The translations under genes were made by a program, and so were the position numbers. Source: a virus (taxonomy: Duplodnaviria; Caudoviricetes). From it: a stretch of 47,849 bases of DNA. Shown in pieces: positions 1 to 47,849 of this stretch (positions are counted from its first letter, which is position 1; each line of letters starts with the position of its first letter). The notes below the pieces were generated by a model, which saw nothing but the letters and a program-made list of their open reading frames with translations, searched no databases and was not told where the DNA came from. The stretch is from positions 1 to 47,849 of the IMG/VR virus record IMGVR_UViG_3300008255_000178; one strand, 5' to 3'.

Positions 1-123
1 GCCAGCAGCGGGAGCCCATCAGTATCAACGCTGTCGTGAGCCATCACATACTTGTAGGCACACACGATGGCGGCGGTGACGGAATTAACCTTTCCCGCCT
101 TTGGGCTGCACACGACAAAGCAA
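1..123. repeat. Terminal 123-bp direct repeat (identical to 47727-47849); circular-assembly overlap
   Basis: Bases 1-123 (gccagcagcg...acaaagcaa) recur exactly at 47727-47849; the repeat lies inside queE. Confidence 0.95.
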
Positions 124-530
124 CGGTTCCGCTCGGTTATATCCTTTGAGCAGAACTCGGGGAAACCGATAGTGGGCGGGGGCAGTGTGCCGTTCGTTTC
201 AACCTGCACTGTGTAACCAGCTTCAAGCAGTTGCTTGACGAGGCGATGAATGTTTTGACGGAAGGGTTCTCCGCCCGTGATGACCACAAGTGAGGGCGCT
301 TTGCGCATCTCGCTGACGTACTGCACCAAGGAGGCGGGGCTAGAAGTCCAGCGGTCGGTCGTGTAGTCGGTGTCGCAGGCTGGACATTGCAGGTTACAAC
401 CAGCAAGCCGAATGAACACAGCGGGGTGACCAGTGAAAGGGCCTTCGCCCTGGATGGTGTCGAAGACCGAATGGACTTCGAGGGTGGATCCGTCGCTGTC
501 GCGACGCTTTTCGATTGGTTGAGTATTCAT
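1..530 (-). CDS. queE: 7-carboxy-7-deazaguanine synthase QueE (radical SAM), 5' part; continues across the junction to 47537 (about 239 aa total)
   Basis: Manual translation from ATG at 530 gives MNTQPIEK...FDTIQGEGPFTGHPAVFIRLAGCNLQCPACDT (CxxxCxxC)...VITGGEP...ETNG, in frame with ORF 47537..47839. Missing from the ORF track because it is split. Confidence 0.93.
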   Translation of the reverse strand, partial: MNTQPIEKRRDSDGSTLEVHSVFDTIQGEGPFTGHPAVFIRLAGCNLQCPACDTDYTTDRWTSSPASLVQYVSEMRKAPSLVVITGGEPFRQNIHRLVKQLLEAGYTVQVETNGTLPPPTIGFPEFCSKDITERNRCFVVCSPKAGKVNSVTAAIVCAYKYVMAHDSVDTDGLPLL

Positions 531-8993: not shown

Positions 8994-9139
8994 AGTGGCA
9001 CCATCTCGCGACGGATGTTTCCACGCTGGCCCTTGAACGTCACCAGCATCGGCGGAGGGGTGTAGCCCCAGGCCTTCGCGGTGTGGTAGGCGACCGGCTT
9101 GGGCGCCAGTCGCTGGATGAGTTGGATTTCACGTGCCAT
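8990..9139 (-). CDS. Small hypothetical protein (49 aa, MAREIQLIQRL...)
   Basis: Manual ORF; TAATG overlap with the thyX stop and GTGA overlap with the HNH start; AGGAG upstream. Confidence 0.6.
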   Translation of the reverse strand: MAREIQLIQRLAPKPVAYHTAKAWGYTPPPMLVTFKGQRGNIRREMVPL

Positions 9140-9804
9140 TACAGTGTCTCCTTGAATGCGGCCACAGCAAAGGGAACGATCGGCTCAACCAGCTCCAGCA
9201 TGGCTTCCGCATACACGCGGATTTCCTTCTGTGCGTGCTCGTGCAGACGCAGGCACAGGAAGTGGAACAGGTTATGCAGATCGACGGTTGCGAACATGCG
9301 CGAATAAGTCGAGCAGGGTAACACGCTGCGAGCCAGCTCACGCGGGCAACCTTGCGCCAGGAGTTCCTTGTAGAGCGCAAAGGCGTCCATCATGGACTTC
9401 CGCATGTAGCTCTGCATCAGAACCGCGTTGCTGTGTTGCTCGTCGGTTCGCATCTGCTTGTTCGACGTGTGCTGGTGCGTGATGTCGTGCAGCTCGGGAA
9501 CGTAGAACTCTTCCGGGAGCTCGCTGTAACGGGCGCTGACCTCGTTGTAAGACCACGTCCTGTGACGGTGCCACTGCCGGAACACAAACAGCGGAGCCTT
9601 GACTTCGAACGTAAAGGTGACCGCTTCGAACGGGCTGGTGTGGTGGTTCTTCATCAGGTAAGCGATCAACTTCTCGTCCTTACCTTCATCTTCACCAGTG
9701 CGCCAGTCAGCGTCGTAGCTTACGCGGGCAGCGCGGACAATGGACAGGTCGTTGCCCATGTGATCCACCAGCCGCACCAGACCATGATCAAGAACTTGCT
9801 TCAT
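9139..9804 (-). CDS. thyX: Flavin-dependent thymidylate synthase
   Basis: AARVSY, HTSPFE, RQWHRHRTWSYNEVSARY ThyX motif, RELARSVLP, HAQKEIR. Confidence 0.95.
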   Translation of the reverse strand: MKQVLDHGLVRLVDHMGNDLSIVRAARVSYDADWRTGEDEGKDEKLIAYLMKNHHTSPFEAVTFTFEVKAPLFVFRQWHRHRTWSYNEVSARYSELPEEFYVPELHDITHQHTSNKQMRTDEQHSNAVLMQSYMRKSMMDAFALYKELLAQGCPRELARSVLPCSTYSRMFATVDLHNLFHFLCLRLHEHAQKEIRVYAEAMLELVEPIVPFAVAAFKETL

Positions 9805-10458: not shown

Positions 10459-10812
10459 TTAAGCCTTGTCGGCGCGTTCCTGGGCGTGTTTGTCGCTGTA
10501 CGTCCCGGAGCTGTAACGCTTGGACAGCTTGGCGATGTTGTGCTCAAGCACTTCCTGGCGGGTGATGCCCAACCCCTGACGCAGGCCTTCCATGTAGAAC
10601 TCAAGGTCGCCGAGTTCCTCAACCACGTTGGCGCGGTCGATGGGCTTGCGGTAGATCGCTGCTTTCTTGATAGCGTCCAGCAGTTCGCCAGCTTCACCAG
10701 CGATGCCGACTGCCATGTGCAGCGAGTGAGCGTCTTCGGGTGTCAGAGTGGCGACAATATCCGCGCCGGGTTTGGCAAGTGCCTGGACAAGTTCGGGGTG
10801 AGTAATGGACAT
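10459..10812 (-). CDS. MazG-like nucleotide pyrophosphohydrolase
   Basis: GIAGEAGELLDAIKK...EELGDLEFY...NIAKLSKRY. Confidence 0.9.
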   Translation of the reverse strand: MSITHPELVQALAKPGADIVATLTPEDAHSLHMAVGIAGEAGELLDAIKKAAIYRKPIDRANVVEELGDLEFYMEGLRQGLGITRQEVLEHNIAKLSKRYSSGTYSDKHAQERADKA

Positions 10813-40149: not shown

Positions 40150-40626
40150 TCAGGCAGAAATGCGACGCTCTGCGACGCGGCGGTTCTTGACGCCACGCGG
40201 GAGCTTGACTTGCTTGACCCGGCGCTCGGTCCTGCGACGCTCGGTCTTCTTAGCGGGGGCACCGTAGCCGTGGAAGCGTCTCCAGTTGTAATACTCGATC
40301 CGGGTGTTGTTCGCGTTCCAACCTTCGGCGTGTGCCATTGCGATCACCTCCGGCAGCGTGGGCTCCATACCAGCCTTGCGCATGGTGTCCAGCTTGGCCC
40401 AGACCGTGTGGCACTTGCCCCCATGCTTAGGGTGGCGCACACCGTTCTGGATTGCACGCTCGGACGGTGCCGCGTCGCCTTGTGACAGTGCAACCTTTAC
40501 CAAGCAGGCATGGACCGCTTCATGCACAGCAGCGGGGAGAACCTTGCCGATGTGTTCCAGGACAGCCTTCTCGAACTCAGCTTCGTTGTTGAAGGTCACT
40601 TGCTTCGGGGTCTTGTTTGCAGTCAT
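40150..40626 (-). CDS. Hypothetical protein with shared C-terminal helical domain (paralogue 3) and Arg-rich tail
   Basis: QNGVRHPKHGGKCHTVW...GWNANNTRIEYYNWRRFHG; AAGGAG RBS. Confidence 0.8.
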   Translation of the reverse strand: MTANKTPKQVTFNNEAEFEKAVLEHIGKVLPAAVHEAVHACLVKVALSQGDAAPSERAIQNGVRHPKHGGKCHTVWAKLDTMRKAGMEPTLPEVIAMAHAEGWNANNTRIEYYNWRRFHGYGAPAKKTERRRTERRVKQVKLPRGVKNRRVAERRISA

Positions 40627-40679
40627 TTCCATCTCCTTGGGGTTGAGGGTTAGGACGCATCGTTGCATCCATGACCTGC

Positions 40680-40708
40680 ACTTTAGGTGACGCACGTTAA
40701 GCCTGCAA
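40680..40708 (-). promoter_or_regulatory. Sigma70-like promoter TTGCAG-N17-TAAAGT
   Basis: Intergenic, 17-nt spacer. Confidence 0.6.
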
Positions 40709-40759
40709 TACATAGTTCCATGTAATTTGCGTTTGCGCAAGGATGTTACAATTGAAGCG

Positions 40760-42763
40760 TCAAATGTAACCAATGTCCCGAAGCATCCGTTCCGCCTCCG
40801 CTTCGTACCATTCATAATTGACATCTTGCGGAAAGGTAGCAGGTAGATCCATCAAAGGTTTTGCACCCTCCGAGCGGGGCACCTTGTTCCCGCTGTCCGC
40901 ATACACAATCTCGCCTTCCTCGCCCGCCGCATAGTACCAGCGGATGGACTTGCCGAGGAACTGACCGTCCTTCACTGCGCCACCCTTTACAGTACGCACG
41001 GACACGAACTTCCGGATGTCGGTACAGGATCGCACTGTGGTCATCACGGGCGTGCCCTTGGTAAGCAACGCAATGACCGCATCGACACAGATCTGGTTCG
41101 TGGGGTTCTTCTGCAAGCCAGTCTTGGCGTAGGCACCCTTCGTCTTGCAGCCGTCCTCCTGGTAGAGCCATTGCTTCGTTTCTTTGTCAAACTTTTTCTT
41201 GACTGCAATGTAGTTATTCACGTCCCGGCTGAAAACAGCGAGGTATTGCGTGTCTTCGGTTTCGAACCCTGTGTCGAGTTCCCATTGCTTCACAATCGCG
41301 TCGCATTCCGCTTGGCGTGCTGTGGGGCACTTGATCACGATGCCGTCCGTGTTGGCGCTGACCACATTGATTCCAACCAGCTCCAAGCGCTCGATCAGCA
41401 TCAGCAGTGATAGCTGGCCCGTGACCGTCACTTGGATCAGCAGGTCGGGCGCGTAGAGTACGGAGTACCTGCTGCCCAGCTTGCCGAAGGATCCGTTGAT
41501 GGTAATCTTCAGCGAGTCCGCGATCACCTTGTTGCCAGCGTGTTTGGCTGCAATACGGCGTTCAACCAGCGTACGATAGACGCGGAGGAAGTTGGAGCCC
41601 AAGTGTTGCGGGTACAGACCCTGATTCAAGATGATATACGGGTAATAAGACGTCACGTCGCGGTCAATCAGCAGCGTGTTGGCGTCCGCATAGTGCGCGG
41701 CACACTGCTCGGAGCTGTGCAGACCTCCGATACCCATGCGATACACTGCACCAGCAATTTCCAGGCGCAGTGCTTTCAGTTCCTCGGGCATACCGACGTT
41801 CCCGTCCTCGCTCACAATGAAGTTCGCATTGCGAACAATGTCGAGCGCCCAATTCATCAGCGAGGACTGGTACTTGATGAACGGAGGGATCTTGTATTTA
41901 TACCGCGTGCCCGGTTCAATGACGGGGCGCTGCGCACGCACACCGTTCAACCGCTCAATCTCTTCAGCAATCACAGCCTCAGCAATCTGGGCGTCAGACT
42001 TGCTGCGCAGATCCATCTTGTACTCACGGCCCATGCTTTCGCGGAGGTCAATTTGTTCCTTCAGCGACTCATGCAGAATGGCGGTGTTCGTTAAGTCATT
42101 CACGCAGTACCAGCGAACGATCGCCATCTGTTCCGGGGACAGCATGGTCTCGGGGTGGAATGGCAAGTCTTGCATCCGCGGGGCGTGCAACCTCCCTCCG
42201 TAGATCTTCAAGCTGGCGCGAAGCGGTGCAACCTCAATCAAGTCAATGTGATTCGGTTTAATCCCTTTGACCTTATACGAGCGCAGGACATCCGACGGGC
42301 GCGTGCCATTCACAATGATCTCGTTCGTCGCTGCTTTCAGCTGTGCGTTCGTCTTACCAGCCAGCGCCATCGACAGGATTGGGATGTCGTAGTTCCAGCC
42401 GTTGAAGCTCACAAGGCAGAAAGTGTTGATGATCCATTGGAGCTTGTCGCGGTTGAAGTCGTGGTTCGCTGTACGCTCGAAGTAGATCACCTTTCCGCTC
42501 GCCAGCGACGTGAAGGCGATCAGAAAATAATTGCAGTAGCACTCAATATCGAATACGAACCGTTCGCGCTTGGCAGCGGCAATCGCAAGCTCCCAGTCTT
42601 CAAACTGCGGAACGCGGAACGCCAGTGCGTCTTGCAAGCCCGGCAGGTAGTCTGGGCGCTCCCATGTACGCTCGGGCGGTGTGCGTTTGGGCTTTTCTTG
42701 CTTCGGAGGTTTCGGCGGAGGGGTATCGTTCCAGAAGAACCCTGCCATGTCTGCTCGAGCCAT
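40760..42763 (-). CDS. DNA polymerase, family B-like, with 3'-5' exonuclease
   Basis: FDIECY, FNGWNYD, YCVND exonuclease motifs; DVTSYYP, KITINGSFGK, ANTDG polymerase motifs. Confidence 0.93.
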   Translation of the reverse strand: MARADMAGFFWNDTPPPKPPKQEKPKRTPPERTWERPDYLPGLQDALAFRVPQFEDWELAIAAAKRERFVFDIECYCNYFLIAFTSLASGKVIYFERTANHDFNRDKLQWIINTFCLVSFNGWNYDIPILSMALAGKTNAQLKAATNEIIVNGTRPSDVLRSYKVKGIKPNHIDLIEVAPLRASLKIYGGRLHAPRMQDLPFHPETMLSPEQMAIVRWYCVNDLTNTAILHESLKEQIDLRESMGREYKMDLRSKSDAQIAEAVIAEEIERLNGVRAQRPVIEPGTRYKYKIPPFIKYQSSLMNWALDIVRNANFIVSEDGNVGMPEELKALRLEIAGAVYRMGIGGLHSSEQCAAHYADANTLLIDRDVTSYYPYIILNQGLYPQHLGSNFLRVYRTLVERRIAAKHAGNKVIADSLKITINGSFGKLGSRYSVLYAPDLLIQVTVTGQLSLLMLIERLELVGINVVSANTDGIVIKCPTARQAECDAIVKQWELDTGFETEDTQYLAVFSRDVNNYIAVKKKFDKETKQWLYQEDGCKTKGAYAKTGLQKNPTNQICVDAVIALLTKGTPVMTTVRSCTDIRKFVSVRTVKGGAVKDGQFLGKSIRWYYAAGEEGEIVYADSGNKVPRSEGAKPLMDLPATFPQDVNYEWYEAEAERMLRDIGYI

Positions 42764-43722
42764 TACTGACGCATCCCAATGATCGCGCCGCGCAAGCGGT
42801 CACCGAAGAACATGCAAGGCGAAGGGTATGCTGACCAGTCGATAGACTTACAAGTGCCGTTGAGGAGGTTCAGCATGTCGATCTGATAGACTCCAGTGTG
42901 GTCAAACCCTTCAATCTCATAACCCGCCCCTTCGGTTTCGTCGTCATGGGTTGCTATTTTACCGCCCCCGCGGAACAGGATGCGACCCGCTTTGTCCGTG
43001 AAGGGCTTCAGGGTCTTCAACGCTTCGAACAGGCGCTCGTCAATGGGTTGCGGGTTGCTTTCACGACCGAGCACTTTCGTCAGGTCGGGCCACTTGGTCT
43101 CAAACAACTGTGTCCGCAACCAGCGCCCATTCGTGAAGTGGAAGGTGATGGAGTTGTCGGTCAACTGCACTGCTTCAGGTGCCTCGTCAATGCGGAGCAG
43201 CTCCTTGATCGCAGCTCGAGGGATATTCAGCGGGCGCGGAACGGTGGAGCCTGTCCAATACTCCACGAGCGTGATATTGTTGGTAGCGAACGCACTCTGG
43301 CCTGACAGTAGCACACCGTTCGACCAAGGGCGGGAAGCGTCGTCACCAATGAACGGAGACACAACCTTGAGCGCCTGGAGCATTGCTGCACCGTCAATGG
43401 CCACATGCTCACCCTCGGGTTGAACGTGCGGAGTGCTTTCGTCCGGAAGGCAATCGACAAACGCTTTAAACTTACCGCTCTTGATGGACAGTCGGCCCGC
43501 TGGTGTGAGCGAAAGCTGAACGGTCTCGGTGCAGTTGGCAATCGCCTTCACCAGCGACTCAGCTTTAGGCTTGCACGCAATATCAAACGGGATCGGGCTG
43601 CACAGCGCCAGCATCCCGTTATATCCGCGGACCGTACCGCCCTCAATGACGAAGTGCGTCAGCGCAGGAATGAAGTCCTTCTTGGCGACTGCACCCTGCA
43701 CGAATTTCAGTTCTGTAAGCAT
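42763..43722 (-). CDS. Sliding clamp (DNA polymerase III beta-like)
   Basis: GAVAKKDFIPALTH, SRPWSNGV...ATN, IPRAAIKEL, KWPDL three-domain pattern; adjacent to the polymerase. Confidence 0.82.
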   Translation of the reverse strand: MLTELKFVQGAVAKKDFIPALTHFVIEGGTVRGYNGMLALCSPIPFDIACKPKAESLVKAIANCTETVQLSLTPAGRLSIKSGKFKAFVDCLPDESTPHVQPEGEHVAIDGAAMLQALKVVSPFIGDDASRPWSNGVLLSGQSAFATNNITLVEYWTGSTVPRPLNIPRAAIKELLRIDEAPEAVQLTDNSITFHFTNGRWLRTQLFETKWPDLTKVLGRESNPQPIDERLFEALKTLKPFTDKAGRILFRGGGKIATHDDETEGAGYEIEGFDHTGVYQIDMLNLLNGTCKSIDWSAYPSPCMFFGDRLRGAIIGMRQ

Positions 43723-44645
43723 TAGAAGAGCTCCTGCACTCGATGCGTGAATTGTTCGTAGTTGTTTTGGGCGTTCATCATTGCGTTGATAACACCGAAC
43801 GCCCAGAGGTTATATGCTGCACGAGATTCATAGACGCTGCTCAGACGCTCGTATGTGAATCCCTGCTTTTCCAACATCTGCAAGACGTAGTCTTGCTCGA
43901 TGGCGGTCAGTGTGGTTGCGTGTTGCCCGGCGTCGTGCCTGGACGGCGACTTCTCCGATACGGACAGCGGGCCCCAATCCGGGGTGATAATGCTGCCGAA
44001 CGCAGCGGACTGAATCCAGGAGGACGAATCCACGCTGTACCACGGATATCGCTCCATGATAGGGATCGCGGTGATACCGAAGCCATGCACCTTCAACCGC
44101 GGGCGACCGCTGCCGTCCGTCAGGTAGCGTTCCCACATGCGGTCCAGCCAGATACAGAGCTGCTTCGTTGAGCTGCCCACCATACCGCCCAGCGTGATAT
44201 ATTCGTAGTTCTGGACGTAATATTCAAGATATCGTTCGTCCTCCCCCGCGTGGAAGCAGGGGAGGGGCTTTGCGCCAAGCTGCTCCATGTGGAGCTGGTT
44301 CTGGTACGTCTTGAGCGGGTCACCGATACCGTCCAGCACGGACGCCATGACAACACCATCCTCAACCCGCCAAAGGTCCATGTTCGCTTTGATATAATTG
44401 CAGTAGGTTGGCAGGTCAATCTCGACGCCAAGTGTGTAGGCGGAGAAGGCGCCTGAGTCGAGGAAGACTTGCGCATTATCTGCACGCATCTGATCGAGAT
44501 ACCGCTGCGAGCCGATGTAGTGATACGACTCGAGGATGTGGGGGATATTATGAACGATCTCTTTTTCGCGGTCGTTCAATTTCAGGTAGCGGTTCTGGCC
44601 TCGCATGTACGAGTTCGTATAGACCGCCGCCATAAAAATGTGCAT
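43722..44645 (-). CDS. dpdA: DNA 7-deazaguanine transglycosylase (TGT fold)
   Basis: FLDSGAFS, LDGIGD, LPCFH, LGGMV, VHGFG, SVDSSSW TGT-family motifs; sits between the preQ0 genes and the replisome genes. Confidence 0.85.
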   Translation of the reverse strand: MHIFMAAVYTNSYMRGQNRYLKLNDREKEIVHNIPHILESYHYIGSQRYLDQMRADNAQVFLDSGAFSAYTLGVEIDLPTYCNYIKANMDLWRVEDGVVMASVLDGIGDPLKTYQNQLHMEQLGAKPLPCFHAGEDERYLEYYVQNYEYITLGGMVGSSTKQLCIWLDRMWERYLTDGSGRPRLKVHGFGITAIPIMERYPWYSVDSSSWIQSAAFGSIITPDWGPLSVSEKSPSRHDAGQHATTLTAIEQDYVLQMLEKQGFTYERLSSVYESRAAYNLWAFGVINAMMNAQNNYEQFTHRVQELF

Positions 44646-44805: not shown

Positions 44806-45708
44806 TTAGTCACAAAGTCGCAGAAACTCAGCGCGGGTTTCGGGCTCGTCCTTGATAACTCCGCGAAGAGCTGTGGTCACAGTGTGATGCCCTTGCTGGC
44901 AGATGCCCCGCGATTCCATGCACAGGTGCCGAGCCTTGATCAGCACGCCAACGCCCTTGGGCTCGAGGTGCTTGAACAGCGCGTCAGCAATCTGGTCGGT
45001 GAGTCGTTCCTGCACTTGCAAGCGGCGAGCATACATATCCGCCAGCCGGGACAGCTTGCTCAAGCCCACAATCTTGCCGTTCGGGATGTACGCGATGGAC
45101 GCAGTGCCGATGATTGCTGCGAGGTGATGCTCGCAGTGCGAGTAGATGGGAATGTCCTTGACGAGAACCATCTGGTCATAAGACTCGCCGCCGTCCTCGA
45201 ATACCTTGAGCAGCTTGGCAGGGTCTTTGCCGTATCCGCCGCACCAGTGTTTCCACGCTTTGGCCACACGAGCAGGCGTCTCCAGCAGACCTTCCCGGTT
45301 CGGGTCTTCGCTGACGAATTCCAGCAGGCGCTTGATGTGATCTTCGATGCCAACTTCAGCAGTCACTTCCCAAGGGAAGACGACCCATTGACGGTGATAC
45401 GGGCCGTCCTCACGCTTGTCGATCAGCACGAAGAAAGGCTTGCCCGGGTACTCGTCGCACAGGCGTTCGCAGGTGGCGCCGCTGCCGATCAGGTCGTCAA
45501 TGAAGATGTCGGCGTCAGCGGGGTTGCTGGTGAGCTGGAAACCGAGCAGGCCTTGCAGCAGGTAAGCGACGGGGATACCGCCCCGCGGCACAGCGTAGGC
45601 CCGCAGGGCCGCGATCGGGTTGCCGGTGCCGTGCTGGTATTGGCGGATCGCTTCGGCGGTGCGGTGTGCCAGTGCGGTGACGTCGTCGTGTGTGAGGTGA
45701 ATCTGCAT
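44806..45708 (-). CDS. folE: GTP cyclohydrolase I fused to an N-terminal phosphoribosyltransferase-like domain
   Basis: C-terminal REGLLETPARV, SHCEHHL, GLSKLSR, RRLQVQERLT, HLCMESRG; N-terminal AVPRGG, FIDDLIGSGAT, WVVFPWE. Confidence 0.93.
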   Translation of the reverse strand: MQIHLTHDDVTALAHRTAEAIRQYQHGTGNPIAALRAYAVPRGGIPVAYLLQGLLGFQLTSNPADADIFIDDLIGSGATCERLCDEYPGKPFFVLIDKREDGPYHRQWVVFPWEVTAEVGIEDHIKRLLEFVSEDPNREGLLETPARVAKAWKHWCGGYGKDPAKLLKVFEDGGESYDQMVLVKDIPIYSHCEHHLAAIIGTASIAYIPNGKIVGLSKLSRLADMYARRLQVQERLTDQIADALFKHLEPKGVGVLIKARHLCMESRGICQQGHHTVTTALRGVIKDEPETRAEFLRLCD

Positions 45709-45717
45709 GTCTGCTCC

Positions 45718-46161
45718 TTAGGCGTGGAAAGATGCGCTGCACTTGGCAGTCTCTTCGATACGGACGGACACCAGTGTCACACCAGTGTCAGCGAGTTGCT
45801 GCGGGCCGATAACTTCGACCAGATGCTGGGCCATGTTCTCCGCCGTCGGGTTGAACGGTACGAACACGACCGACGGGCCAAAGAACTCGTCCGCGTGCAT
45901 GTGAAAGCAGGCTTCTTTCATGACGGGGTCGTTATCCCAGGCCAGGAACTTGTGGTCCCAATTATTTTCGACCCACATGCACAGGCGCTCTTTGATGACG
46001 CCGAAGTCAATCACTCGCCCGACGGTATCAAGCTCCGCAGCTTCGCAGACGAAGTGGATTCGGTAGTTGTGCCCGTGCAGGTGACGGCACTTGTTCTCGT
46101 GACCGACGACGCGATGGCCGGTGCTGATATCGTGGTAGCGTTCCGCGGTGATGCGTTTCAT
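45718..46161 (-). CDS. queD: 6-carboxy-5,6,7,8-tetrahydropterin synthase
   Basis: GHR...CRHLHGHNY, VIDFG, WDH, NPTAENMA, IEET. Confidence 0.93.
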   Translation of the reverse strand: MKRITAERYHDISTGHRVVGHENKCRHLHGHNYRIHFVCEAAELDTVGRVIDFGVIKERLCMWVENNWDHKFLAWDNDPVMKEACFHMHADEFFGPSVVFVPFNPTAENMAQHLVEVIGPQQLADTGVTLVSVRIEETAKCSASFHA

Positions 46162-47534
46162 TGTTCGTCCTTATAAGAAATGACTTCGGGGATGTTGTTG
46201 ATCTCGAATGCCTTGCGTCGCATGTAGCAGGGTCCGCACGTTCCGCAATGCAACTCACCGGCGCGGTAGCAGCTCCAGGTCAGGTGCATAGGGGCACCAA
46301 TGCGGTTCCCAAGTTCGACAATCTCATGCTTCATAAGGTTGCCAACAGGCATGATAACACGCATCCGCTTTCCGTCACCAACAGCGAACGGGAGCATGTC
46401 ATTGAAGCGGGAAATGAACTCCGGTTCGTTGTCAGGGTAGGCGCCAGCTTCTTCGAGGTTGTTCCCGAGAACGATGGTGTCAATCCCTCGTGCTTCAGCG
46501 AATGCAGTCGCGACGGACAGGAGCAGCAAGTTCCGGGCAGGAACCCATTCATGAGCGAACTCTGCGCCAGCTTCACCGCCCGCCACCTTACTGTCAGGAT
46601 CGAGCAGCGGGGAATCACCCTTCGAATAGACGGGCAAGTTGAACAGCGTAAGCTCTGCGCCCAGGAACTCCGCGACCGCCTGAATTGCTTTGACCTCCGG
46701 ACCCTCAGCGCGACTCCCGTACAGGAAATGAATCAGATGAACGTCCATACCGAGCTCGCGTTGCGTATAGGTTGCGCTGACCACACTGTCCAGGCCGCCA
46801 CTACACACGACCAACGCCCGCTCACCTTGTACGGTGCCGGAGTACAAGCTCACTTCCTTGCTCAGGCCTTGTGCGTCGAATAACGCGGCGCTGTAAGGCT
46901 TCAACATGCGTGACGGATACTCCTGAGGCAGGTAGTCGCGGGAGCTTGCGAAGAACACCCCGTAAGGAGTTTCGATGTACCAGACCGGACGATAATTCGC
47001 AGCGACGAACAGTTTGTCAGTGTGGTCAGTATGGGTTGCCAGGATTGCGTAGCTGCCCCGGAGCTTTCGAATCACAGTGACGAATTCGTCAAACGTGCCA
47101 TTCGCGCTTGCAAGCTGCTCCGCAATTGCTGCACTGTCGATACTGGTGGGCAGATCGTTGGTGCGGAGCTCCTTGTCGTTTGCGATGGTGCCGTTATGAA
47201 CGATAGACCATTTGTCGGAGGTGTAGGGCTGCTGATCGGACAGACGTTTCTCACGCACGAACTCCGTCGTCGGTTCAGCCCGAAGGTTGCCCACAACAGT
47301 CGCCGAGCGGCAGATCTTGTGCAACGCGGGAGCACACACTGCGCGACCGTTGCTCCGAGTCACTTCACGGTATCCCTGCAAACCCCATTCGCCGCTGGAG
47401 TTGATAACGAACCCGCGACCGTCCCGCCCACGCTCATGGCTGGTCTGCCAGACGTGCTCAAGGATATCATTCACAGCTTCGATCTTTTGGTGCGTATCAA
47501 TGCGCCGCACCAGTGCGCCAACTATTGAGCACAT
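46158..47534 (-). CDS. queC: Gat-QueC: class II glutamine amidotransferase fused to 7-cyano-7-deazaguanine synthase
   Basis: MCSIVG (N-terminal nucleophile Cys), RGRDG, HNGTIAN, DS; SGGLDS, VPARN, YPD, TWSCY...CGTCGPC. Confidence 0.93.
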   Translation of the reverse strand: MCSIVGALVRRIDTHQKIEAVNDILEHVWQTSHERGRDGRGFVINSSGEWGLQGYREVTRSNGRAVCAPALHKICRSATVVGNLRAEPTTEFVREKRLSDQQPYTSDKWSIVHNGTIANDKELRTNDLPTSIDSAAIAEQLASANGTFDEFVTVIRKLRGSYAILATHTDHTDKLFVAANYRPVWYIETPYGVFFASSRDYLPQEYPSRMLKPYSAALFDAQGLSKEVSLYSGTVQGERALVVCSGGLDSVVSATYTQRELGMDVHLIHFLYGSRAEGPEVKAIQAVAEFLGAELTLFNLPVYSKGDSPLLDPDSKVAGGEAGAEFAHEWVPARNLLLLSVATAFAEARGIDTIVLGNNLEEAGAYPDNEPEFISRFNDMLPFAVGDGKRMRVIMPVGNLMKHEIVELGNRIGAPMHLTWSCYRAGELHCGTCGPCYMRRKAFEINNIPEVISYKDEQ

Positions 47535-47536
47535 AC

Positions 47537-47849
47537 TCACTCCACGTTGATTATCTTATGGACTTGCAACTGCAAGGCGTATCCGTGTTTCATAACCGAA
47601 TCGACGCACGCTTTAAGGTTGGCGGCGTTCGTCTGGTTATCCTTGTCGTCGCAGGGTTGCAGGTAGATGACCCCGTTGAATCCGTCATGAGGTCGAGCCA
47701 CTCGAGGGGACGCACTGTGGTCAAGCGCCAGCAGCGGGAGCCCATCAGTATCAACGCTGTCGTGAGCCATCACATACTTGTAGGCACACACGATGGCGGC
47801 GGTGACGGAATTAACCTTTCCCGCCTTTGGGCTGCACACGACAAAGCAA
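47537..47849 (-). CDS. queE: QueE, 3' part (continuation of 1..530)
   Basis: VVCSPK...YLQP...LQLQVHK QueE C-terminal motifs. Confidence 0.93.
   Translation of the reverse strand, partial: CFVVCSPKAGKVNSVTAAIVCAYKYVMAHDSVDTDGLPLLALDHSASPRVARPHDGFNGVIYLQPCDDKDNQTNAANLKACVDSVMKHGYALQLQVHKIINVE
47727..47849. repeat. Terminal 123-bp direct repeat (copy of 1-123)
   Basis: Exact match to the window start. Confidence 0.95.

Follow-up and report, generated by a model that had tools for sequence, protein, structure and literature searches.

A Gpt-type phosphoribosyltransferase domain lacking loop II is fused to the GTP cyclohydrolase of a phage DNA modification cluster and may sense guanine nucleotides

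The GTP cyclohydrolase I (FolE) encoded in the 7-deazaguanine DNA modification cluster of the phage genome studied here (the window, the whole stretch of 47,849 nucleotides) carries an N-terminal domain of the Gpt-like phosphoribosyltransferase (PRT) type. The PRT domain of FolE is a real, conserved, and widespread accessory part of a known modification system, and it is apparently undescribed. It has lost the catalytic lid, and in this copy also the catalytic acid, and has kept a pocket for guanine nucleotides. We give a little short of an even chance to the reading that this domain would be, from its sequence, a lidless, Gpt-derived guanine-nucleotide sensor that tunes FolE, and not an efficient enzyme. 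The fusion gene and its neighbors are as follows.

44806..45708, minus strand: PRT-FolE fusion gene, a single uninterrupted open reading frame of 300 amino acids
45714..45719, minus strand: Shine-Dalgarno-like AAGGAG, 5 nucleotides 5' of the fusion ATG and overlapping the queD stop
44812..45348, minus strand: FolE (GTP cyclohydrolase I) domain, residues 121 to 299 (Pfam PF01227, E value 3.3e-70, profile positions 1 to 178 of 179)
45718..46161, minus strand: queD (Pfam PTPS, E value 2.5e-25)
46158..47540, minus strand: gat-queC (Pfam QueC and GATase; 43% and 68% identity to the 9g domains)
47537..47849, minus strand: queE, 3' part (PHROG 2076)
3..530, minus strand: queE, 5' part (PHROG 2076)
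43722..44645, minus strand: dpdA, a DNA guanine transglycosylase of the 9g type (PHROG 887, E value 6e-94; 67% identity to the 9g protein)

The two pieces of queE arise because the contig is a circularly permuted phage genome, with a 123-bp terminal repeat and queE divided between both ends. The order on the minus strand is queE, gat-queC, queD, PRT-folE, dpdA, clamp, and polymerase B, and the same gene order is given for the Queuovirinae in passages of PMC10484667. A first-pass annotation, made from the letters alone, had placed a complete FolE, joined without a stop, inside a deazaguanine cluster, and both points hold: the FolE domain is a full PF01227 with CEHH and HxC motifs, in which C192, H194, H195, H261, and C263 are invariant, and queE, gat-queC, queD, and dpdA adjoin the fusion. 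The 9g-type gene set for dG+ (folE, queD, queE, gat-queC, and dpdA) is complete, and on the basis of the likeness of gat-queC to that of 9g, we predict that the modification in this phage is dG+. The 9g pathway, as set out in passages of PMC6884629, shares FolE, QueD, QueE, Gat-QueC, and DpdA1 in the same order beside the clamp and polymerase B, but its FolE is a plain protein of 204 amino acids, and no match to the PRT profile was found in the 9g genome. The closest cultured homologues are from NP1-like Pseudomonas phages (73% protein identity). An assembly artefact is ruled out as the origin of the fusion, since the junction is common to 7 of 7 cluster members and is also spanned by a contig of another study (run X4). 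The runs that are labeled RNA consist of contigs and probably derive from DNA. AlphaFold2 models the full-length fusion as two domains, with a pLDDT of 94. Elsewhere in the window, three paralogues with no assigned function (624-1157, 1986-2825, and 40150-40824) match PHROG 21588, 17772, 18634, and 11298, and two of them sit just upstream of queE.

With residues 1 to 114 alone as the query, Pfam gave no significant PRT match (best PRTase-CE, E value 0.13), and a single-sequence search of the PDB gave nothing significant, with Gpt borderline (E value 0.36 to 0.75). PHROG 8995, "phosphoribosyl transferase," matches the same residues with an E value of 2e-5. A family profile built from 29 sequences matches XGPRT/Gpt structures (E value 4e-8) and, by hhalign, aligns with E. 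coli Gpt from one end to the other over 110 columns (probability 97.1, E value 6.9e-11). Results from a profile that included Gpt were left out as circular. The AlphaFold2 model of the domain (pLDDT 96) has Sulfolobus HGXPRT 4z1o as its top structural match (Z 12.0, root mean square deviation [RMSD] 2.5 Å, 106 residues aligned). XGPRT 6kp5 (Z 12.0, RMSD 2.2 Å, 105 aligned), the PH purine PRT 1vdm (Z 11.6), the ppGpp-bound 5vog (Z 11.2), and H. pylori XGHPRT (Z 11.1) also match, and the top 35 rows are PRT-fold proteins throughout. As modeled, residues 1 to 114 are a type I PRT fold of the Gpt/HGXPRT subfamily. The profile and model check proposed in the first pass thus found the PRT fold, and the four motif pairs quoted there as Gpt-like are all in register with E. 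coli Gpt. The elements of the domain are the following.

45367..45708, minus strand: Gpt-type PRT domain without loop II, residues 1 to 114 (family profile, hhalign, AlphaFold2 model, and structure comparison)
45577..45588, minus strand: loop I motif PRGG, residues 41 to 44, Gpt S36 to G39 (hhalign to Gpt; set of 312 domains)
45472..45498, minus strand: loop III PRPP motif DDLIGSGAT, residues 71 to 79, in register with Gpt
45484..45486, minus strand: Gly75, codon GGC, in place of Gpt Asp92 (hhalign to Gpt)
45415..45417, minus strand: Lys98, aligned to Gpt Lys115 (hhalign; K in 253 of 311 domains)
45367..45387, minus strand: purine hood WVVFPWE, residues 108 to 114, Gpt W134 to D140 (hhalign to Gpt)

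The roles of loops I to III are taken from passages of PMC6783271 and PMC9536471. Across the 312 domains, loop I has P in 307, R in 289, and its two glycines in 308 and 312, and the purine hood has W in 299 of 306, P in 301 of 305, W in 300 of 304, and E in 297 of 302. D71 and D72 align with Gpt D88 and D89, and the alignment also keeps K98, W108, and E114 at the 6-oxopurine positions. We take their Gpt equivalents, K115, W134, and D140, to be the 6-oxopurine residues, with K115 the 6-oxo contact. The domain thus shares its fold (Z 11.6 to 12.0), loop I, loop III, the lysine, and the W..PW[DE] hood with Gpt (1a95 and 6kp5) and archaeal HGXPRT (4z1o and 1vdm). PyrR and PurR are regulatory PRT folds, and human PRTFDC1 and mammalian GFRP, the latter a functional analogue, are further comparisons. 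The phage domain is closer to Gpt than to either PyrR (1w30, Z 9.4) or PurR (1o57, Z 5.6), and unlike them it has no RNA- or DNA-binding part and is attached to an enzyme, while the proposed use as a sensor is alike.

Three parts of Gpt are missing from the phage domain: residues 57 to 78, residues 119 to 127, and the C-terminal arm. The first stretch (T57 to E78, containing S62-Y63 and R69) is loop II, the catalytic lid, and its 22 residues bear out the earlier estimate of about 20; the model contains no such loop. The second deletion removes 9 residues. The spacer between PRGG and DD is 20 to 35 residues, compared with 48 in Gpt, and loop II is absent from 289 of 303 parsed domains. The window copy also differs from Gpt in its occurrence in a phage, its fusion to FolE, and the Gly at the position of Asp92, which we take to be the catalytic Asp of loop III; both features of catalytic competence, the flexible loop II and the loop III Asp, are therefore absent from it. 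In human PRTFDC1 the Asp is likewise changed to Gly, and that protein has far less than 1% of the activity of HPRT. Loop II comes to cover the active site during catalysis, according to passages of PMC9536471 and PMC6783271, and deletion of 7 loop II residues from T. cruzi HGPRT lowered kcat 380-fold for IMP and 840-fold for GMP (PMC9536471, in a passage citing earlier work). Judged from sequence, fast turnover by the window copy, which has neither lid nor Asp, is unlikely.

The Asp itself is common among relatives. It is present in 115 of 120 proteins listed from a word search, a count made on proteins alone, and in 302 of 312 dereplicated domains, a figure inflated by that part of the set that came from a search pattern requiring Asp. 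A different residue occurs in 10 of the 312 domains, with the other motifs mostly intact. In the window lineage, 7 of 7 cluster members carry Gly75, as do contigs of three runs covering the codon, which rules out an assembly error. Twenty-two variant sites in this lineage comprise 18 synonymous and 4 nonsynonymous changes (pN/pS 0.07, p 2e-8); the latter fall at V12, S27, Q31, and D62 and leave the motifs untouched. Purifying selection still acts on the Gly75 lineage. Members of the family may differ in function, with Asp-type members perhaps still turning over and the Gly lineage no longer doing so. The median dN/dS between loci is 0.21 for the PRT domain versus 0.09 for FolE, over the 76 of 120 pairs that were usable and that are nonindependent. 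One pair, L004 and L005, has near-identical PRT domains (dN 0.017) and divergent FolE domains (dN 0.18), a contrast that suggests recombination at the domain border.

These observations bear on two readings other than the sensor. One is slow salvage, in which guanine excised by DpdA would react with PRPP to give GMP and return to the GTP pool, which would also clear away a base that competes with the modified one; we regard it as a serious possibility that is nonetheless rather doubtful. The PRPP, Mg, and purine positions are all kept, including the Asp in the 115 of 120 listed proteins, but the lid is absent family-wide, and the window copy has lost both lid and Asp with selection intact. The other is a structural appendage, a ligand-blind domain kept only for stabilization or oligomerization of FolE, which we consider highly improbable. 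Among the 29 sequences, at a mean identity of 41%, the only invariant columns are P41 to G44, D71, D72, G77, T79, and P112 to E114, all in ligand-pocket motifs, together with A48 and A66, and the pocket motifs persist in stand-alone forms. The domain is, on the other hand, dispensable (present in 0 of 9 dpdA phages with unfused FolE) and repeatedly lost, and the FolE of Vid5 (L001: 6899-7714) bears an unrelated N-terminal extension of about 85 amino acids instead of the PRT domain, as an appendage would allow.

The fusion is common and is not peculiar to the phage of the window. The PRT domain matches 34 of 50,697 GenBank phage records, in which the annotated proteins are all named GTP cyclohydrolase, and the whole fusion protein matches 406 records. 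A word search returned 125 proteins with the domain, of which 120 were listed, and a profile search returned 875 clusters (50% identity, E values up to 1e-10). The best 150 of these 875 clusters include 57 FolE fusions, 15 proteins ending right after the domain, and 78 with another tail; 36 proteins aligned from the last class are 145 to 170 amino acids long, with a C-terminal helix resembling the first helix of FolE. Three scans of viral contigs, two of which gave the best 80 of 212 and the best 80 of 129 matches, left 123 distinct contigs after 32 repeat loci were dropped, a set that is not dereplicated. Among these listed matches, 105 are fused, 11 are stand-alone and loop-less, 5 are stand-alone and loop-containing, and 2 are unclassed.

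A survey of fused loci had been proposed for co-occurrence with dpdA and gat-queC. Among the matches listed that have flanks of 3 kb or more on each side, queD, queE, and dpdA occur in 56 of 56 fused loci, while the downstream enzymes are QueC in 29, DpdL without QueC in 14 (DpdL being assigned by 39% identity to phiST CGPG_00067), Gat-QueC in 8, QueC plus QueF in 2, and neither in 3. The PRT motifs are constant across the predicted final bases of these 56 listed loci. A domain specific to dG+ can be rejected, with Gat-QueC in only 8 of the 56. The presence of dpdA in all 56, for every predicted product, argues for salvage, guanine being the sole by-product that they share. Detached PRT forms survive, and loop-containing PRTs occur in similar clusters (BUCT-ZZ01, StAshley, and L023-L025), also in line with salvage. 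So is the occurrence of a PRT in both phiST (CGPG_00045, L027: 8998-9426) and immuto_2-6A (gp211, L026: 8893-9288), which are described as fully G-substituted with DpdA3 in PMC10516641, where the main-text discussion, in the passages covered, makes no mention of a PRT. Both proteins are Gpt-like, and no Campylobacter phage appeared in the search that yielded them. The guanine load to be salvaged is estimated at 0.6 to 1.1 mM from 27,124 G per genome, an assumed 25% exchange, and a burst of 50 to 100.

A third alternative, which we judge unlikely, is that the domain ribosylates or binds a deazaguanine, CDG or preQ0, in the manner of TubE, and acts as a sink for overflow, as a feedback signal, or as a route at the nucleotide level. 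TubE, as described in passages of PMC6112128 and bioRxiv 10.64898/2026.04.15.718813, is a CDG-specific PRT, and according to the former it is encoded with homologues of FolE, QueD, QueE, and GMP reductase. TubE/ToyH and the phage domain thus share a Gpt-like PRT clustered with homologues of FolE, QueD, and QueE, and the supplement legend of PMC6112128 names 4Z1O, the top structural match of the phage domain, as the alignment partner chosen for TubE. CDG would moreover be made in all 56 fused loci listed, through folE, queD, and queE. TubE, likened here by description and not by sequence, differs in being a stand-alone protein of 194 amino acids from antibiotic clusters that end in a nucleoside and have no DpdA. 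Against this alternative, DpdA, which uses the free base, is encoded in every one of the listed loci, and ribosylation would be in competition with it; the motifs stay the same whatever product is predicted; and the conserved Asp would face position 7 of the base, where CDG bears its carboxylate. The earlier proposal of preQ0 or G+ ribosylation, with its polymerase-dependent route, is weakened further by the scarcity of Gat-QueC and by the absence of QueC from 17 of the 56 loci. The sink cleaned by MazG that went with it fares no better, the MazG-family protein of the window (10459-10812) lying outside the dpd cluster, in a nucleotide-metabolism region near thyX (9139-9804). In the large viral contigs L023-L025 (L024: 39-10446) and L021, folE, yhhQ, and queE lie together with genes for TGT-like and DpdL-like proteins, GMP reductase, and a loop-containing PRT. 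The joint presence of folE, GMP reductase, PRT, and queE in L023-L025 speaks for the deazaguanine alternative, and the pairing of PRT with GMP reductase, like the tailoring set of tubercidin and toyocamycin, could indicate a nucleotide-level deazapurine route.

Whatever its ligand, the domain is accessory, dispensable, and repeatedly lost or regained. It is dispensable because nine related dpdA phages with unfused FolE do without it, no match to the PRT profile being found anywhere in their genomes, with Quinobequin-P09 as the positive control. The plain FolEs of these phages do not form one clade (p-AU 0.0025; the FolE phylogenies are quick trees), and fusions to the domain occur in two FolE clades; the tree of the PRT domain itself has little resolution, with 7 of 80 branches starred. 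Loss in hosts presumed to have their own Gpt was considered and rejected: P. putida MiCath and Acinetobacter HD01 have no domain, and Vibrio phages fall on both sides. Loss is likewise not host-linked in general, Vibrio and Pseudomonas phages occurring with and without the domain, which argues against salvage. Unfused PRTs adjoin folE in immuto_2-6A (loop-less, 74 nucleotides upstream), StAshley, L144, L152, and L161; that of BUCT-ZZ01 lies within its modification cluster, and that of phiST lies about 17 kb from its own. In L144 (7917-8939), a loop-less stand-alone PRT has the first helix of FolE duplicated at its C terminus and lies 16 nucleotides before a separate and complete folE. P0127, P0221, P0238, and others are of the same kind. 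Twelve rows with stand-alone loop-less forms are scattered over the tree, which suggests repeated fission. L007 has a PRT with neither FolE nor any other cluster gene. P0134 and P0228 are PRT-FolE fusions whose FolE is interrupted by an intein with an HNH domain. Loop-less PRTs are joined in P0125 to an uncharacterized helical domain and, by eye, in P0227 to a DpdA-like C-terminal fragment and in P0191 to a probable endonuclease-like N-terminal region. A single scan of cellular genomes with a narrow pattern yielded 18 loci, of which only 2 have the domain, both beside queD/queE/queC and one of them on a phage-like contig of 57 kb. L164 (CAZJFO010000004.1), a 57.5-kb contig in a Neisseria metagenome-assembled genome (MAG), has a full Queuovirinae-type cluster with clamp and polymerase and is probably a binned phage.

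Returning to the sensor, published work places the commitment of GTP to 7-deazaguanine synthesis at FolE and the exchange of the base into DNA at DpdA. The PRT pocket is of the 6-oxopurine nucleotide type and is constant across the predicted bases, from which we infer that the ligand is guanine or a guanine nucleotide. The pocket formed by loop I, loop III, and the purine hood would bind GMP, GTP, (p)ppGpp, or guanine plus PRPP, and, with loop II removed, di- and triphosphates would gain access to the 5'-phosphate pocket. Occupancy would be relayed to FolE through its first helix, and the tuning of FolE would spare GTP when guanine nucleotides are scarce; residual slow transferase activity in Asp-containing relatives would be compatible with this role. 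The partner speaks for the sensor: it is FolE and not DpdA, the fusion accounts for 105 of the 123 contigs listed and involves two FolE clades, and unfused PRTs often lie right beside folE. Two host kinases separate GMP from GTP, the substrate of FolE. Because of that distance, fusion to FolE gives salvage no channeling gain, whereas it is how a regulator would be expected to look at the first committed, GTP-consuming step.

A precedent for the open pocket is B. subtilis HPRT, in which, according to passages of PMC6783271, loop II compresses the 5'-phosphate pocket, and the pocket opens for (p)ppGpp when the loop is held away. Of two loop deletions in that enzyme, one kept full pppGpp binding, but the longer one abolished it, which counts against a lidless sensor. 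Retention of the Asp in 115 of 120 listed proteins is also higher than would be expected of an enzyme that died long ago. The stand-alone loop-less forms (11 of 123 contigs listed; 36 aligned helix-tailed proteins) mean that covalent linkage to FolE is not required, and the faster evolution of the PRT domain relative to FolE and the nine related phages without it also count against the sensor. The low pN/pS of the Gly75 lineage could come from fold stability alone. For the window copy, the sensor is slightly favored over salvage because lid and Asp are both gone while selection continues; the two remain close. A wider version of the sensor, about which we are more tentative, is that phages have made Gpt into a lidless sensor of guanine nucleotides or alarmones that acts as a dedicated regulatory subunit of FolE, either fused or docked via a duplicate of the first FolE helix. 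Such a subunit would be the phage equivalent of GFRP and would supply the missing control of DNA modification with 7-deazaguanines across hundreds of lineages of phages.

The first pass had also placed a PRTase outside the described Dpd pathway, and term searches agree: the main texts of PMC6884629, PMC10484667, PMC10516641, and PMC7472734, whose supplements with gene tables could mention one, name no phosphoribosyltransferase among the pathway enzymes. The literature searched, with subscription reviews outside its scope, gave no account of a PRT-FolE fusion. At each site, a phage that replaces between a quarter and all of its guanines uses up one GTP and releases one guanine, an estimated load of about millimolar per infection. 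How G-substituting phages manage GTP and guanine is unaddressed in the pathway papers searched, and the PRT domain is a candidate for this task. It is present and unannotated in the cultured phages NP1, PaMx25, JG054, Quinobequin-P09, and VpKK5, which makes it directly testable. If either leading reading is true, the domain would be either a regulator of FolE with a PRT fold or a natural PRTase able to function in the absence of the lid that is usually held necessary for catalysis.
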